Source of the DNA: an uncultured Porphyromonadaceae bacterium | GTDB lineage: Bacteria > Bacteroidota > Bacteroidia > Bacteroidales > UBA12481 | Direction of reading: 5' to 3' | NCBI GenBank assembly: GCA_964355105.1 | Contig: CAYHCO010000003.1 | Location: forward strand, 5,577-69,576 | Length of the DNA stretch: 64,000 nucleotides | Part shown: in pieces, positions 16,620-63,129 of the stretch | How positions within the stretch are numbered: the first letter of the stretch is position 1 | How the letters are laid out: the number at the start of each line of letters is the position of its first letter | Position numbers and translations under genes: made by a program | The notes under the pieces: generated by a model | The model's input: the letters and a program-made list of their open reading frames with translations, nothing else | Databases searched by the model: none | What the model was told of the DNA's origin: nothing

Positions 16620-18122
16620 GTGGGCATCATTGAAAAACAGAGCATTAAGGGATCCATCTATTCTTATATCGGCGTTGCCATAGGATTCATTACTGCCGGC
16701 TACCTGATGCCGAATTATTTCAGCAAAGAGCAAAACGGGGTCATTGAACTTCTCACCTCCTATTCATTGGTTTTTGCCACCCTCGCAACCCTTGGCCTTA
16801 ACAATGTAACCGTCAGGCTCTTCCCGTGGTTTCGCAACAAAGACAATCATCACAACGGATTTTTCGGCATACTTTTCTGGGTCAACATGGCCGGATTCCT
16901 GCTGGCACTTATCCTTTACCTGATCCTCAGGCCCTGGATCCTGGGCGATACACCCGCCGGTACCGGTCTGTTCGCCAAATATGTAGATTACATTATTCCT
17001 CTCACTGCCTTTACCACCATCTACCTGGTCATTGATATCTATTATTCGGTTTTGATGAATGCCGTTCGCGGGATTTTTCTCAAGGAATTTGTTCAGCGCG
17101 TGATCCTGCTGGTGGTTATCCTGGGCTTCATTGCCGGCATTTTCCAGTTTAACGGAGTCATCCTGCTGTTTACCGTTGCCCTCTCAACTCCGGGAATCAT
17201 CATTGCAATTCTTCTGATGAAAGACGGTGAATTCAGGATTAAACCCCAGCCGGAATTTCTCACTCCGGAACTTAAAAAATCGGTGACCAGTGTCGCTTTT
17301 TACGGGATCACCATCGCTTTCAGCAATATCCTCATCCTCTATCTTGATCGCATCCTGATCAATGACATGCTCGGTCTGGGCGAGACCGGCACCTATGGCC
17401 GTCTAGCCTTTTATGGCACCTTGGTTTCCATTCCGATACGATCCGTTTCGAAAATTTCCGCGGTGATGGTCGGACAAAACTGGAAAGACGGTGACCATGA
17501 CGCCATTAACAAGCTTTATCGCGATACCAGCCTGCATCAGCTGATTTTCGGCCTCCTGATCTTCATCGGAATATGGGGAAATGTGAAAAATATTTTCCAC
17601 ATGATCCCCGATAGCTACTCCAACGGCCGTTACGTGATTTTTTGGATGGGAATATCTAACCTGTTCATCATGGCCTCGGGTATCAGCGGTTCCATCATGA
17701 CCACCAGCAGTCACTATCGACGCCTGGCGATGTTTGTCGTGTTTTTCGGGATACTTGTATTGGCAACAAACCTGCTCTTCATTCCGATGTTCGGCATTGC
17801 CGGCGCAGCGCTCGCTTCGGCTGTTTCGGCGCTGTTTTATGCAGGAATGAGATTTGTCTTCCTCTGGAGGCGTTATGGCATGCAGCCCTACACCTGGCAG
17901 CATGCGGGTGCGGTGGTGGTTGCCGCGCTCTCCTACCTGCCGGCCATCCTGATTCCCGACCTGTATCAGGCGGATCACCATTATCTGAGTTTAATCCTGG
18001 ATGTTGCGGTCAGAAGTGCCGCCATTTCCATTGTTTTTATAGGAGCCACCCTGATATTTAACCTATCTCCCGATCTGAACAGGCGTTGGAATGAGATGCT
18101 GGGATGGCTGAGGCTGAAATAA
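16620..18122 (+). CDS. polysaccharide (O-unit) flippase, Wzx/MOP family
   Basis: 500 aa, about 12-14 TM. N-terminus KGSIYSYIGVAIGFITAGYLMPNYFSKEQNGVIELL is typical of oligosaccharide flippases. It leads the sugar biosynthesis locus. GTG start. Confidence 0.7.
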   Translation: MGIIEKQSIKGSIYSYIGVAIGFITAGYLMPNYFSKEQNGVIELLTSYSLVFATLATLGLNNVTVRLFPWFRNKDNHHNGFFGILFWVNMAGFLLALILYLILRPWILGDTPAGTGLFAKYVDYIIPLTAFTTIYLVIDIYYSVLMNAVRGIFLKEFVQRVILLVVILGFIAGIFQFNGVILLFTVALSTPGIIIAILLMKDGEFRIKPQPEFLTPELKKSVTSVAFYGITIAFSNILILYLDRILINDMLGLGETGTYGRLAFYGTLVSIPIRSVSKISAVMVGQNWKDGDHDAINKLYRDTSLHQLIFGLLIFIGIWGNVKNIFHMIPDSYSNGRYVIFWMGISNLFIMASGISGSIMTTSSHYRRLAMFVVFFGILVLATNLLFIPMFGIAGAALASAVSALFYAGMRFVFLWRRYGMQPYTWQHAGAVVVAALSYLPAILIPDLYQADHHYLSLILDVAVRSAAISIVFIGATLIFNLSPDLNRRWNEMLGWLRLK

Positions 18123-18148
18123 TTTATCTTTGTAAAAACCGGATCATC

Positions 18149-18862
18149 GTGGCAGAAAAACTTTTACTTATCGGAGGCGGCGGACACTGCAAATCGTGTA
18201 TCGACGTGATACAGGCAGAAGGAAGGTTCGAGATTGCCGGGATCGTGGAGAATGCGGGGTATCAGGTTCCCGCCTTCGCGGGAATGACAGAGAAGGGTGA
18301 AGGTTCCCGCCTTCGCGGGAATGACAGAGAAGGGATTGGTGAGCTGGGAAGTGTAATGGGATACCCGGTCATCGGAACCGATAGTGAATTGCCTGAGCTC
18401 ATCAGGGTGTATAAAAATGCGCTGATCACCGTTGGCCAGATTCAGCATCCCGATATCCGGATAAAACTGTTTAACCTGATCAGGAGCATGGGCGGCCAGT
18501 TTCCGGTCATTATCTCTCCAAACGCCTATGTATCAAGGAACGCACTCGTCGGTGAAGGCACGATCGTGATGCACCATGCGGTGGTAAATACCGAGGCCGT
18601 TATCGGGGTAAACTGCATACTCAATACGGGTGCACTTGTTGAGCACGAGGCACACGTTGGTGACCACAGCCATATTTCCACCTATGCCATACTGAACGGG
18701 CAATGCAAGGTGGGAAGCCGCACCTTTATCGGCAGCCGCACGGTGTTGTCGAACAATACCGATGTGGCAGACGATACCCTGATATCAGCCGGCTCTGTCG
18801 TTCTGAGGTCGCTTGAACAACCCGGGACCTATATTGGCAATCCGTTAAGGAAAATCCGATGA
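18149..18862 (+). CDS. neuD: NeuD/PglD-family sugar N/O-acetyltransferase (hexapeptide repeat) carrying an in-frame repeat insertion
   Basis: KLLLIGGGGHCKSCIDVIQ..FEIAGIVE N-terminal fold. Left-handed beta-helix hexapeptides (GEGTIVMHHAVVNTEAVIGVNCILNTGALVEHEAHVGDHSHIS). GTG at 18149 is preferred over ATG 18104, which overlaps the flippase. Confidence 0.7.
   Translation: MAEKLLLIGGGGHCKSCIDVIQAEGRFEIAGIVENAGYQVPAFAGMTEKGEGSRLRGNDREGIGELGSVMGYPVIGTDSELPELIRVYKNALITVGQIQHPDIRIKLFNLIRSMGGQFPVIISPNAYVSRNALVGEGTIVMHHAVVNTEAVIGVNCILNTGALVEHEAHVGDHSHISTYAILNGQCKVGSRTFIGSRTVLSNNTDVADDTLISAGSVVLRSLEQPGTYIGNPLRKIR
18265..18334 (+). repeat. two tandem 33-bp palindrome-containing units (37-bp period) inside the neuD-like CDS
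   Basis: ggttcccgccttcgcgggaatgacagagaaggg occurs at 18265..18297 and again at 18302..18334. Each holds the hairpin ttcccgc-cttc-gcgggaa. Confidence 0.9.
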
Positions 18863-22775: not shown

Positions 22776-23656
22776 GATTCCAGTTTTTTACGGTCGAAAG
22801 CATCAATGAAAGTGACAGAACTGGCATTGATGATTTTTACGTTTTGCGACAGCGCAAATTCCTGGATGAGGTGATAGCTGCGGAAAGTACGGTACAGGTT
22901 GTAAAAATAGTCGTGCAGGTTGGCCCGCTGAAGCGTTTCGGGATGGTGAACCGCCACTTTCCAGGGCTTTTTGTCGTAAAAATGGTTCTCTGCCGAGACC
23001 AGTTTCCCATCTTCCCCGATCTCGAGTCCCTGGTGCCAGGAATGATCGGCCCCGACAATGATTATGCTGCCGAATCCGCATGCCAGTCCGGCCATCAGGG
23101 CCCCGATCAGCACGTTCTGCGGTGGGGGCATCCCCATCTGCCGGCGGTACAGCCAATGCCTGACGGGTTTTAGTCCATCAACAACCGTGCGGTTCATGAA
23201 AGCAAACCGGATGGGAATACCTGAAGCGACCAGATCGCGGTGAAAACGGCTGTTCCGGCCTTCAGCAGGGCAAAAAAGAGTTAGCGGCCAGGTGGTCTTT
23301 TCGATGAGCGCCTTCTTGATCAGCTCACGCACTTCGGCAACACGCGGAATCGTGGTATCTGCGAAGTACCCGATATCTAAAAGAATGTAATACTGCGGCT
23401 TAAGTCGCTCGTATTCATCGCTTAACACAAACTGGTTGACGCACAGGAGCTGCTTGTTTTCAAAAAAGCCGGGATGATTCTGAAGATCAGACCGCAGGGA
23501 CGGTCCGTTGGCTAAAATTACCAGCTCCTTGCCGGAGGCTTTGATCCTGGTGAGATCTGAACTGAAGCGGAAACGGAAAAGCACTCTTATCAGACTGATC
23601 AGGGCTTGATAAACCGATTCGAAGAAGCGTTGTATTTTGAGTAAAGCGTAAAACAT
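22754..23656 (-). CDS. putative nonulosonate (sialyl-like) transferase, GT42/DUF115-like
   Basis: LVILANGPSLRSDL....LLCVNQFVLSDEYERLKPQYYILLD resembles the Cst-II/GT42 N-terminus (GNGPSL..RCNQFYFEDKYYLGKK). Later GFGSIIIVGADHSW compares with GYKEIYLSGIDF. The start is taken at internal ATG 23656. The 3' end overlaps neuA by 22 nt. Confidence 0.45.
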   Translation of the reverse strand: MFYALLKIQRFFESVYQALISLIRVLFRFRFSSDLTRIKASGKELVILANGPSLRSDLQNHPGFFENKQLLCVNQFVLSDEYERLKPQYYILLDIGYFADTTIPRVAEVRELIKKALIEKTTWPLTLFCPAEGRNSRFHRDLVASGIPIRFAFMNRTVVDGLKPVRHWLYRRQMGMPPPQNVLIGALMAGLACGFGSIIIVGADHSWHQGLEIGEDGKLVSAENHFYDKKPWKVAVHHPETLQRANLHDYFYNLYRTFRSYHLIQEFALSQNVKIINASSVTFIDAFDRKKLESYPWETR

Positions 23657-23705
23657 GACAGGCTTTTGTGCGAAATTAACTAATTTCCCATCCAAACCGA
23701 ACAGG

Positions 23706-24623
23706 ATGGACGAGACGATGAAAGGCGGCACCCGGCTCCAGGGCCAACCGGCGGCACGAGTGGCCGGACTACCCGTGATTTCGGTAATCACCGTGGTGTA
23801 CAACGGTCTGAGCCTGATCGAAAAAACTATCAGGAGTATTGTTTCCCAGACTTATCCCAATATCGAATATATAGTGATTGACGGGGGTTCCACCGATGGG
23901 ACCGTTGAAATCCTGAAGTTATACGAAGATCGGATCAGCTATTGGATAAGCGAACCGGATCGCGGCATTTACGATGCCATGAACAAGGGATTGGCGGCTG
24001 CCACCAGCGATTATGTGTGGTTCATGAATGCCGGCGATCTGATCTATTCCGACGATACAACCGAAAAGATCTTCGGTTCGGTCCGGGGGGATGGGTCGGT
24101 CGGAGTTGATGGGTTGGTCGGGGTGGATGGTTCCGGGATTAGTTTAACGCAAGCCTCCCGTGCGGCCATTTATTATGGCGACACGATGATTGTGGATCCG
24201 GAATACCGCGAGGTGGGTCTGCGCCGGCTCCGCCCCCCGGAAAATCTCACGTGGAAAAGCTTCAGCCGGGGCATGCTGGTCTGCCACCAGGCGATCATTG
24301 TGAGCAGGACGATCGCCGGGGAGTTTGATCCGCGGTACCGGCACTCAGCGGATTTCGATTGGGTCGTACGCGCGCTTATGAAGGCAGAAGTTATGGTTCC
24401 CCCCAGACTTCAGTCTGGGGGGAAGGCCGAAGTTATCGTTAACACCCACCTCATTCTCTGCGCGTTCCTGGATGGCGGCCATTCCAAGCAGAACATCGGC
24501 ATCAGCCTGCGGGAGCGGTTCGATTCCATGGTACGGCATTACGGCTGGGTTCCCACCATGATCCGGCATGTGCCAATTGCCATCAAATTCGTCTGGTATT
24601 ATCTGAGAAACAAACGCTTCTAA
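23706..24623 (+). CDS. family 2 glycosyltransferase with two in-frame repeat insertions
   Basis: ISVITVVYNGLSLIEKTIRSIVSQTYPNIEYIVIDGGSTDGT...YWISEPDRGIYDAMNKG (GT2 DxD region). The start is uncertain (23655, 23706 or 23718). Confidence 0.75.
   Translation: MDETMKGGTRLQGQPAARVAGLPVISVITVVYNGLSLIEKTIRSIVSQTYPNIEYIVIDGGSTDGTVEILKLYEDRISYWISEPDRGIYDAMNKGLAAATSDYVWFMNAGDLIYSDDTTEKIFGSVRGDGSVGVDGLVGVDGSGISLTQASRAAIYYGDTMIVDPEYREVGLRRLRPPENLTWKSFSRGMLVCHQAIIVSRTIAGEFDPRYRHSADFDWVVRALMKAEVMVPPRLQSGGKAEVIVNTHLILCAFLDGGHSKQNIGISLRERFDSMVRHYGWVPTMIRHVPIAIKFVWYYLRNKRF
24090..24143 (+). repeat. 18-bp tandem repeat x3 inside the GT2 CDS
   Basis: gatgggtcggtcggagtt / gatgggttggtcggggtg / gatggttccgggattagt encode DGSVGV DGLVGV DGSGIS. 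Confidence 0.8.
24380..24436 (+). repeat. in-frame 42-bp insertion unit: 15-bp duplication flanking a 10-bp-stem hairpin, inside the GT2 CDS
   Basis: gaaggcagaagttat (24380..24394), then ggtt, then ccccccagac-ttca-gtctgggggg (24399..24422), then gaaggccgaagttat (24422..24436). Protein reads KAEV-MVPPRLQSGG-KAEV. Confidence 0.85.
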
Positions 24624-56836: not shown

Positions 56837-56920
56837 GCCCAGATGGCGGAATCGGTAGACGCGCTGGTCTCAAACACCAGTAACAGCAATGTTGTGCCGG
56901 TTCGACCCCGGCTCTGGGTA
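56837..56920 (+). tRNA. tRNA-Leu (anticodon CAA)
   Basis: gcccaga-tg-gcgg-aatcggtag-a-cgc-g-ctggt-ctCAAac-accag, long variable arm taacagcaatgttgt, gccgg-ttcgacc-ccggc-tctgggt-a. Class II tRNA. The acceptor closes with one G-U pair. Confidence 0.9.
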
Positions 56921-56930
56921 CAAAAAGAAA

Positions 56931-56972
56931 GGCAGAAGGCAGAAGGCAGAAGGCAGAAGGCAGAAGGCACAA
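56931..56972 (+). repeat. perfect (GGCAGAA)x5 + GGCACAA heptanucleotide array 10 nt after tRNA-Leu
   Basis: ggcagaa x5 at 56931..56965, then ggcacaa. Confidence 0.95.
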
Positions 56973-56988
56973 GTAATTGGGCCTTTTT
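56964..56988 (+). repeat. 25-bp direct repeat, left copy
   Basis: 24/25 identical to 57981..58005. Confidence 0.9.
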
Positions 56989-62947: not shown

Positions 62948-62974
62948 GGCGGAAGGCGGTGCGGGGGGAGACCT

Positions 62975-63037
62975 CCCCAGACTGAAGTCTGGGGCTATCC
63001 AGAGAGAACGAGGATAGCCCCGGGTTGAAACCCGGGG
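62975..63037 (+). repeat. three abutting GC-rich hairpins
   Basis: ccccagac-tgaa-gtctgggg (62975..62994). gctatcc-agagagaacga-ggatagc (62994..63018). ccccggg-ttgaaa-cccgggg (63018..63037). The first is the reverse-orientation twin of the hairpin inside the GT2 gene at 24401..24420. Confidence 0.85.
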
Positions 63038-63129
63038 CAGTTGAGAATATCGATAATTATAGACTTGGAATTATGATCCGAAAACCATAATTTCAGCGAT
63101 TCTCTGACTCAGACTAAAACCTATATTTT

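Follow-up and report, generated by a model that had tools for sequence, protein, structure and literature searches.

How a hairpin flanked by two near-identical direct repeats came to lie, in frame, within a conserved glycosyltransferase gene is the question raised by a locus in the 64,000-nt stretch of DNA analyzed here (hereafter the window), which comes from the genome of a bacterium of an uncultured Bacteroidales genus. The gene belongs to the GT2 family, and the hairpin and its repeats occupy window positions 24380-24436. A first-pass annotation had taken this arrangement for the footprint of a small inserted element that duplicated its target. We find that the hairpin is a copy of a family dispersed through this genome and its genus, and that it sits at a site where orthologous genes of other species also hold repeats. 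The reading we favor, and consider moderately probable, is that a genus-specific repeat resembling the repetitive extragenic palindromic (REP) elements was copied into a hot-spot loop of the enzyme, with the duplication arising as a one-off by-product.

The in-frame hairpin unit

Positions 24380-24436 read gaaggcagaagttat, then ggtt-cccccc-agac, a TTCA loop and gtct-gggggg, then (g)aaggccgaagttat, which bears out the initial description of a hairpin between near-identical 15-nt direct repeats (DR1 and DR2; Table 1). The repeats start 42 nt apart, so the frame of the open reading frame (ORF) 23655-24623 is kept and the protein runs KAEV-MVPPRLQSGG-KAEV across the unit, the hairpin-plus-repeat segment being residues MVPPRLQSGGKAEV; the sole difference between DR1 and DR2 is synonymous (GCA versus GCC, alanine in both). 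The stem had been described as a perfect 10-bp duplex, and perfect it is, although the hairpin scan gives a length of 12 bp: in the tail of the GT2 copy CC (24399-24400) replaces the AA of the family and pairs with GG at 24421-24422, extending the stem. The 20-mer core of the family lies at 24401-24420, and the RNA fold of the hairpin region reaches -28.1 kcal/mol (z = -3.7 versus shuffles).

DR1 is itself composite. Its first 11 nt make up 1.5 units of the genome-wide heptamer AAGGCAG, and its last 4 nt (ttat) coincide with the start of the element tail, so that the supposed target and the element overlap. Directly after DR2 stands the native cgttaacacc, encoding I-V-N-T, which resembles the element tail ggttaacccc and belongs to an IxNT motif conserved in all GT2 orthologs. 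The hairpin is foreign to the gene, as the first-pass reading implied, for distant orthologs (Marinilabiliaceae, Pedobacter, Mucilaginibacter and others) read ALKKT-DKIxNT and carry no insert; what did not hold is the duplication as a footprint of the family, as set out below.

The gene probably starts at the ATG at 23718, which gives a protein of 301 aa, and its orthologs align from about residue 22. An AlphaFold model (mean predicted local distance difference test score, pLDDT, 85.9) places the insert in a surface loop between helix 211-225 and strand 240-251, where the local pLDDT is ~63. Residues 124-146 of the model, which covers the 301-aa protein, form a second loop where pLDDT is <50; it is variable in length in all genus orthologs and contains the tandem repeat listed in Table 1.

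A dispersed hairpin family

The assembly containing the window comprises 4.4 Mb in 132 contigs (48% GC, 97% complete) and is labelled G000 in the comparisons; its relatives are labelled as uncultured Bacteroidales or 'Porphyromonadaceae' genomes from lakes and groundwater, and all genomes involved are metagenome assemblies. Within 2 mismatches, the palindrome occurs 49 times in this genome versus 0 expected. The unit spans ~30 nt and consists of a tail, (C/T)T(C/A)TGGTTAA, directly 5' of a 20-nt palindrome, CCCCAGRC-TTCA-GYCTGGGG, with ATT often following on the 3' side when the copies are oriented alike. This conserved tail of 9-10 nt abuts every hairpin and may belong either to the target or to the element. 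Position 7 of the stem and its partner covary, being A-T or G-C, and the paired variants AGAC/GTCT, AGGC/GCCT and GGAC/GTCC are all seen. The GT2 copy apart, all copies (48 of 49) fall outside long ORFs or at ORF edges, typically just up- or downstream. Most are single or stand in direct arrays, here with a period of 39-44 bp and variable linkers, and four inverted pairs occur. By direct reading, the consensus element is stop-free in three of its six frames, including the frame used by every ortholog.

The 20-nt core recurs once within the window, where shuffled sequence yields 0 expected matches, and it does so reversed at 62975..62994 in an intergenic hairpin cluster, exactly as first noted. 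This copy and a neighboring hairpin of a different stem family (Table 1) both lie in the intergenic gap 62948-63129. An Rfam scan of the window matched only two tRNAs and no model for the hairpin. An intrinsic terminator was rejected as a general reading of the family, because a T-run follows only some copies and the GT2 copy is internal to a gene.

Among 19 genomes of the genus the exact palindrome is present at 0-120 copies per genome, with 29 in this genome, 120 in G016, 33 in G007, 16 in G010 and 11 in G008; six species, including that of the closed genome G018, have no exact copy. Outside the genus, matches were found in two of 42 genomes of the same order, one in each, both having TTAA, itself a palindrome, as the loop. 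Relatives also contain direct arrays in which 4-8 hairpins follow one another at a regular period of 41-51 bp (G016:C20:31395-31792, G016:C54:3804-3987 and G007:C153:1905-2074), that on G016 C54 comprising five copies directly downstream of the GT2 gene of that species.

A genus-wide repeat hot spot in the GT2 loop

Alignment of the GT2 orthologs revealed (M)V(N)PRLQSG in at least 10 other members of the genus, with site and frame identical to those here. In all, the same hairpin, with frame, orientation and site alike, occurs in 11 or more of the 59 genus orthologs, where its translations include MVNPRLQSG (G014), MTNPRLQPG (G007 and P0045) and MTNPGLQSG (P0013); P0045 carries it in three copies, within three 42-aa tandem units that include the hairpin. 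Three genus orthologs (P0035, P0044 and P0050) have the bare loop ALKKAEG-I-xNTHL, and all the remaining ones have 5 to ~160 additional residues at precisely this site. The DNA of the inserts, read from seven genus orthologs, contains heptamer arrays of AAGGCTC or GAAGGCA (translated KAQGSRLKAQG or KAEGRGQ), a purine-rich module GGCAGAAATTAGGAAGAAG (translated AEIRKKN) and CATCAGCA-type repeats. Near-identical pairs can differ by the whole insert, P0034 having 69 residues and P0035 none.

The hairpin appears to have come and gone repeatedly. On a GT2 tree built without the insert, its presence requires at least eight changes, at least three of them on well-supported branches, and of the orthologs in the sister clade of the query gene, that of G014 bears the hairpin and that of G002 has repeats only. 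Among other orthologs the closest reach at most 76-79% identity; a 100% match was obtained only to the same protein on a separate 13.4-kb contig, with the insert present there too. In G014 and G007, for which genome-wide copies were listed, the stem type of the GT2 copy recurs at other copies of the same genome, and in G007 the tail of the GT2 copy, TATGACTAA, does so as well.

These data bear on vertical inheritance from one ancient insertion in the ancestor of the genus, with the second KAEV made by slippage at AAGGCNG remnants and no new copying in this lineage. Such a history would explain why orientation, frame and site are identical in so many orthologs, the sister clade included, and tandem duplications spanning the hairpin are indeed known in this loop, as in P0045. 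We nevertheless rate it as rather unlikely. The 20-mer in the GT2 gene equals the present genome-wide consensus although the surrounding gene has diverged by ~30% in protein, and the stem type of an ortholog follows the family of its own genome, which points to re-copying or gene conversion; to these are added the number of changes required on the tree and the fact that gttat, which is not repetitive, is not readily duplicated by slippage.

The loop resembles the usual surroundings of these repeats. Its native codons AAG-AAG-GCA-GAA-GG (KKAEG) amount to ~1.7 units of AAGGCAG, the second most common heptamer array of this genome, and the native ATC-GTT-AAC (IVN) resembles the tail ATGGTTAAC. 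Across the genome, four of the 49 hairpins have a strict heptamer array no more than 60 nt away, versus 0.14 expected at random positions, and at C3:72320 (CAGAAGG)x4 stands directly 5' of a hairpin. In our reading, repeats enter the loop by repeated copying because it has homology to the sequences that usually flank them, a likeness through which it would have become a hot spot across the genus. The KKAEG codons may have served as a proto-repeat of AAGGCAG and the IVN codons as a mimic of the element tail, and heptamer arrays, the purine-rich module and hairpins would then have been copied in, expanded and deleted over and over, with inserts presumably persisting only where they were in frame and stop-free.

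Three further observations concern the repeats found in this loop. An AAGGCAG array of 6.4 units lies at window 56929-56973, immediately after the tRNA gene 56837-56920. The purine-rich module is itself dispersed, as (GGCAGAG)n-GGCAGAAATTAGGAAxAAG...AAGAAATAAGG, with at least 40 copies genome-wide (for example C3:79605, just past the end of the window), and in other species (G009, P0015 and P0016) it is read in frame, as AEIRKKN, within the GT2 loop. In the G011 ortholog (L012 / L036) the frame changes exactly within a GGGCACA-type tract, the hot spot measuring 109 nt, or 1 mod 3; this could reflect phase variation, a pseudogene or an assembly error.

Selection could also have kept the segment for a function, either as an mRNA hairpin that tunes translation or stability or as part of a repeat-based switch that turns a surface-polysaccharide glycosyltransferase on and off or varies it. 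In favor of this, the hairpin is very stable as RNA, the palindrome is maintained by compensatory changes among orthologs, the G011 ortholog falls out of frame exactly at the repeat tract, and the gene is the closing one of a nonulosonic-acid surface-sugar locus (NeuD / NeuB / NeuC / CBS-nucleotidyltransferase / NeuA). Intergenic copies, however, maintain the same hairpins, so that the compensatory pattern is a property of the family and not of the gene, and many orthologs have a bare loop or lack the hairpin. The lone frameshift comes from a metagenome-assembled genome and could have arisen in assembly, and the tract here, of ~1.5 heptamer units, is too short for efficient slippage. We therefore regard a retained function as very improbable.

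A Y1 transposase gene beside the hairpins

This genome holds a single Y1_Tnp (PF01797) gene, at the end of contig C88, with a family hairpin ~140 bp upstream whose tail points toward the gene. Across the 7 Mb of G013 there is one exact copy, and it precedes a homologous Y1 gene by ~245 bp, with the same orientation. The Y1 gene of G017 is bracketed on both sides by CCCCGGCC-TGAA-GGCCGGGG, the commonest stem among the CCCCGG-type hairpins counted in that genome, and the Y1 gene of G018 is followed by a CCCCGGTC hairpin; among the CCCCGG-type hairpins counted in G018, none is as frequent as CCCCGGCC. A scan for any GC-rich hairpin, which covered five of 15 Y1 loci, added G018 to this list. Thus, in G000, G013, G017 and G018 a hairpin of the genome's own stem type adjoins the Y1 gene. 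REP elements and their transposases show this pattern too, a stem type particular to the genome that recurs in the hairpin adjoining a single-copy Y1 gene (PMC3116915). G005, an assembly only 72% complete, has four copies of the palindrome and no Y1 match. The number of transposase genes likewise agrees with the one copy per genome of REP-associated tyrosine transposases (RAYTs), IS200 being multi-copy, in that G000 yields one Y1_Tnp match, to a gene cut by the contig end; motif searches in six frames found its C-terminal half nowhere else in the assembly.

On these sequence comparisons the hairpin system resembles a REP/RAYT or an IS200-derived system, with a transposase that appears to fall outside the RAYT family proper. 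The family may thus depend on this enzyme, its copies probably being made as single-stranded hairpin DNA by the predicted IS200-like tyrosine (Y1/HUH) transposase, a single-strand route that would leave the target without a duplication.

A conserved motif, TGCATCTATAT, precedes the Y1 start codon by 20-35 nt in three species (L021 1440-1500; L116 and L123 upstream of Y1) and could mark a promoter or the end of an element.

Origin of the flanking duplication

The longest direct repeat between the flanks of each copy was recorded with one mismatch allowed, over 60 nt on each side in this genome and 40 nt in relatives. At the GT2 copy the flanking repeat of 15 nt is beyond chance. The other single copies of this genome gave 5-10 nt, every other value of 12 nt or more stemming from tandem arrays of the element itself, and the 16 single copies in G007 and G016 gave 5-8 nt only, with none of 10 nt or more. 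A census of the family thus yielded no further target duplication at any of the 48 other copies here or at any of the 16 in the two relatives. We conclude that a target duplication is not supported as a trait of the family, as expected for Y1-type movement, and that the 15-nt duplication is peculiar to the GT2 copy. Two outcomes had been named in advance as speaking against the first-pass proposal, a segment shared by orthologs and a lack of flanking duplications at other copies, and both were observed; a simple, private and recent insertion with target duplication is therefore not what the data show for this copy.

How, then, might the duplication have arisen? We suggest microhomology-guided template switching or slippage, and prefer the former. 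The nascent strand would have departed from the gene after ...GAAGTTAT, copied TTAT/GGTTAA-hairpin-GG from an ectopic copy and rejoined the gene at GAAGG, 15 nt upstream. Such a switch would account for the retained tail, for the 15-nt repeat and for the absence of repeats elsewhere. The double change of AA to CC in the tail looks like the product of quasi-palindrome correction with the GGAA of DR2 as template. We also considered whether the structure is what remains of a 42-bp tandem array, with a second hairpin after DR2, and rejected this, because past nt 25 the letters agree at only four of 17 positions, no more than by chance.

Several observations weigh against the reading of a REP-like repeat copied in, with the duplication as by-product. 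Deletion of one repeat together with the hairpin gives the minimal ortholog length, KAEV-IVNTHL versus KAEG-IxNTHL in P0035 / P0044, as would result if an element had inserted cleanly into an empty site and duplicated its target. The exact gaagttatggtt junction was not found at any potential donor elsewhere in the assembly, slippage alone would not duplicate the non-repeat 'gttat', and no relative above 80% identity was found that could show the empty site. As for the transposase, 12 of 15 homologous Y1 loci have no hairpin fitting the strict search pattern. The Y1 proteins do not reach the RAYT model NF047646 of NCBIfam (26-27 bits versus a cut-off of 80) and score 46-67 bits against the IS200 model NF033573, for which the cut-off is 55, and the Y1 gene of this genome is cut by a contig end.

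The first of these points is what one would predict from a classical miniature transposable element that recently entered an empty KAEV-IVNTHL by a staggered cut, leaving a true target-site duplication of 15 nt (up to 19 nt). The direct repeats abut the element and are identical at 14 of 15 positions, removal of 42 nt restores the minimal length, and the single synonymous difference between the repeats fits a fairly young duplication. Even so, we regard this as unlikely, given that no such repeat accompanies the other copies surveyed, that ttat in DR1 belongs to the conserved tail of the family, so that target and element overlap, and that in P0003 and P0004 (G014, sister clade) the hairpin occupies the identical site and frame with no flanking duplication. 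To our knowledge, moreover, 15-19 nt is longer than the target duplications of bacterial insertion sequences, which also counts against this origin.

A more far-reaching proposal is that the helix-strand loop is a dedicated landing pad, into which Y1-mobilized hairpins and heptamers are written to give an on/off or variant switch, and that the 15-nt duplication is the footprint of an undescribed, homology-guided route of insertion. We think this improbable and return to its consequences below.

The neuD repeat and a summary of features

The first-pass annotation had also suggested that the GT2 unit and an insertion in neuD might belong to one family, both beginning with ggttccc and ending with gggaa. 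NeuD (18104-18862) contains, in frame at window 18264-18334, two tandem 37-bp units AGGTTCCCGCCTTCGCGGGAATGACAGAGAAGGGTGA with the hairpin TCCCGC-YTTC-GCGGGA followed by ATGACAGARAAGGG. This hairpin represents a separate family of ~29 copies, usually embedded in GGGTATC heptamers, and since its stem differs from that of the GT2 copy a single family was rejected. Its conserved tail lies on the side of the hairpin opposite to the GGTT that, on the + strand, precedes the GT2 copy. The 'ggttcc' in GT2 is a mutated GGTTAA tail, whereas in neuD the corresponding letters are flank (ggt) followed by stem (tcccgc). The resemblance is thus superficial and coincidental, and the most that the two families could have in common is a tail-like motif, ACAGAGA / CCAGAGA, which lies on opposite sides.

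Table 1. Positions of the GT2 gene, its repeats and the related hairpins in the window
Feature	Position	Strand	Evidence or remark
GT2 glycosyltransferase gene	23655..24623	+	PF00535, E = 3e-26
18-bp tandem repeat, 2.9 copies, encoding GSVGVDGLVGVDG	24078..24130	+	second variable loop of GT2
Direct repeat 1 (DR1), gaaggcagaagttat	24380..24394	+	encodes (K)AEV
Element tail, ttatggttcc	24391..24400	+	alignment of 49 copies; consensus (c/t)t(c/a)TGGTTAA
Segment separating DR1 and DR2, ggttccccccagacttcagtctggggg	24395-24421	+	
Perfect 12-bp hairpin, ttccccccagac TTCA gtctggggggaa	24397..24424	+	hairpin scan; stem arms 24397-24408 / 24413-24424
Direct repeat 2 (DR2), gaaggccgaagttat	24422..24436	+	14/15 identical to DR1
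Intergenic family copy, TGAA-loop orientation on + strand, tail ctatccagagag	62975..63006	-	20-nt core 62975-62994
Neighboring hairpin of a different stem family, gccccgggt TGAA acccggggc	63017..63038	undefined	

Discussion

Short palindromes that spread with tyrosine transposases are a known system, that of REP elements, of the inverted doublets called REPINs and of RAYTs (Nunvar 2010; Bertels & Rainey 2011, PMC3116915). The family described here shares with REP/RAYT systems its short GC-rich palindromes in tens to more than 100 copies, which are nearly all extragenic, single as well as clustered, and palindromic with compensatory changes, together with a genome-specific stem type beside a single-copy Y1 transposase gene and the absence of a target duplication. 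It departs from them in that the transposase scores as IS200-like and not as a RAYT, that the host is an uncultured Bacteroidales genus and that one copy is translated inside a gene; the conserved flank here is GGTTAA, unlike the GTAG tag of classical REPs. Inverted doublets outnumber singles among REPINs, whereas here four inverted pairs stand among 49 copies, most of which are single or arranged in direct arrays (41-51 bp period in relatives). A miniature inverted-repeat transposable element would bring a target duplication of fixed length at each copy, which this family does not.

The hairpins can also be compared with IS200/IS605 elements and their gene-less derivatives, the palindrome-associated transposable elements (PATEs), which likewise have subterminal hairpins, a short conserved sequence adjoining the hairpin and no target duplication. 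Y1/HUH single-strand transposition, by which those elements move, would be predicted here as well, and the G017 gene is flanked by hairpins on both sides. PATEs insert 3' of a fixed tetra- or pentanucleotide that the foot of the hairpin recognizes; the tail beside every hairpin here may be such a target or a piece of the element. The dispersed unit here, by contrast, is ~30 nt long with a single hairpin and is not two-ended, and the Y1 gene is single copy.

Cyanobacterial short tandemly repeated repetitive (STRR) and small dispersed repeat (SDR) sequences combine 7-nt tandem arrays with tiny hairpin-forming dispersed repeats that occasionally lie inside genes. The genome-wide heptamer arrays and very small hairpins found here, which also occasionally enter genes, are similar, although phylum and sequences differ. 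SDRs are named in PMC3116915. Rickettsia palindromic elements measure ~100-150 bp, encode a conserved peptide and are very often intragenic, with 44 such insertions in R. conorii (PMC10969869). The GT2 copy is like them as an in-frame palindromic repeat in a conserved enzyme gene, giving a peptide where the fold tolerates it (PMC10969869), but the unit here is ~30 nt and only one of 49 copies is intragenic.

No new kind of mobile element is revealed, and the repeats are of an ordinary selfish kind. Most striking are the unique duplication and a hot spot that spans the genus, in a conserved enzyme loop. A REP-like system with an IS200-like transposase partner is documented here in an uncultured freshwater Bacteroidales genus, a group in which such systems are little described. 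The GT2 loop offers a clear natural example of intergenic repeat modules that were copied into a protein-coding loop and translated, and its range among species, from 0 to ~160 extra residues, makes it useful for studying how far an enzyme tolerates repeat-derived insertions. For annotation, odd peptides such as MVNPRLQSG or AEIRKKN in proteins of this clade are to be recognized as translated repeats. Were the loop in truth a landing pad, it would represent a repeat-driven switch of a nonulosonic-acid surface polysaccharide in free-living Bacteroidales.

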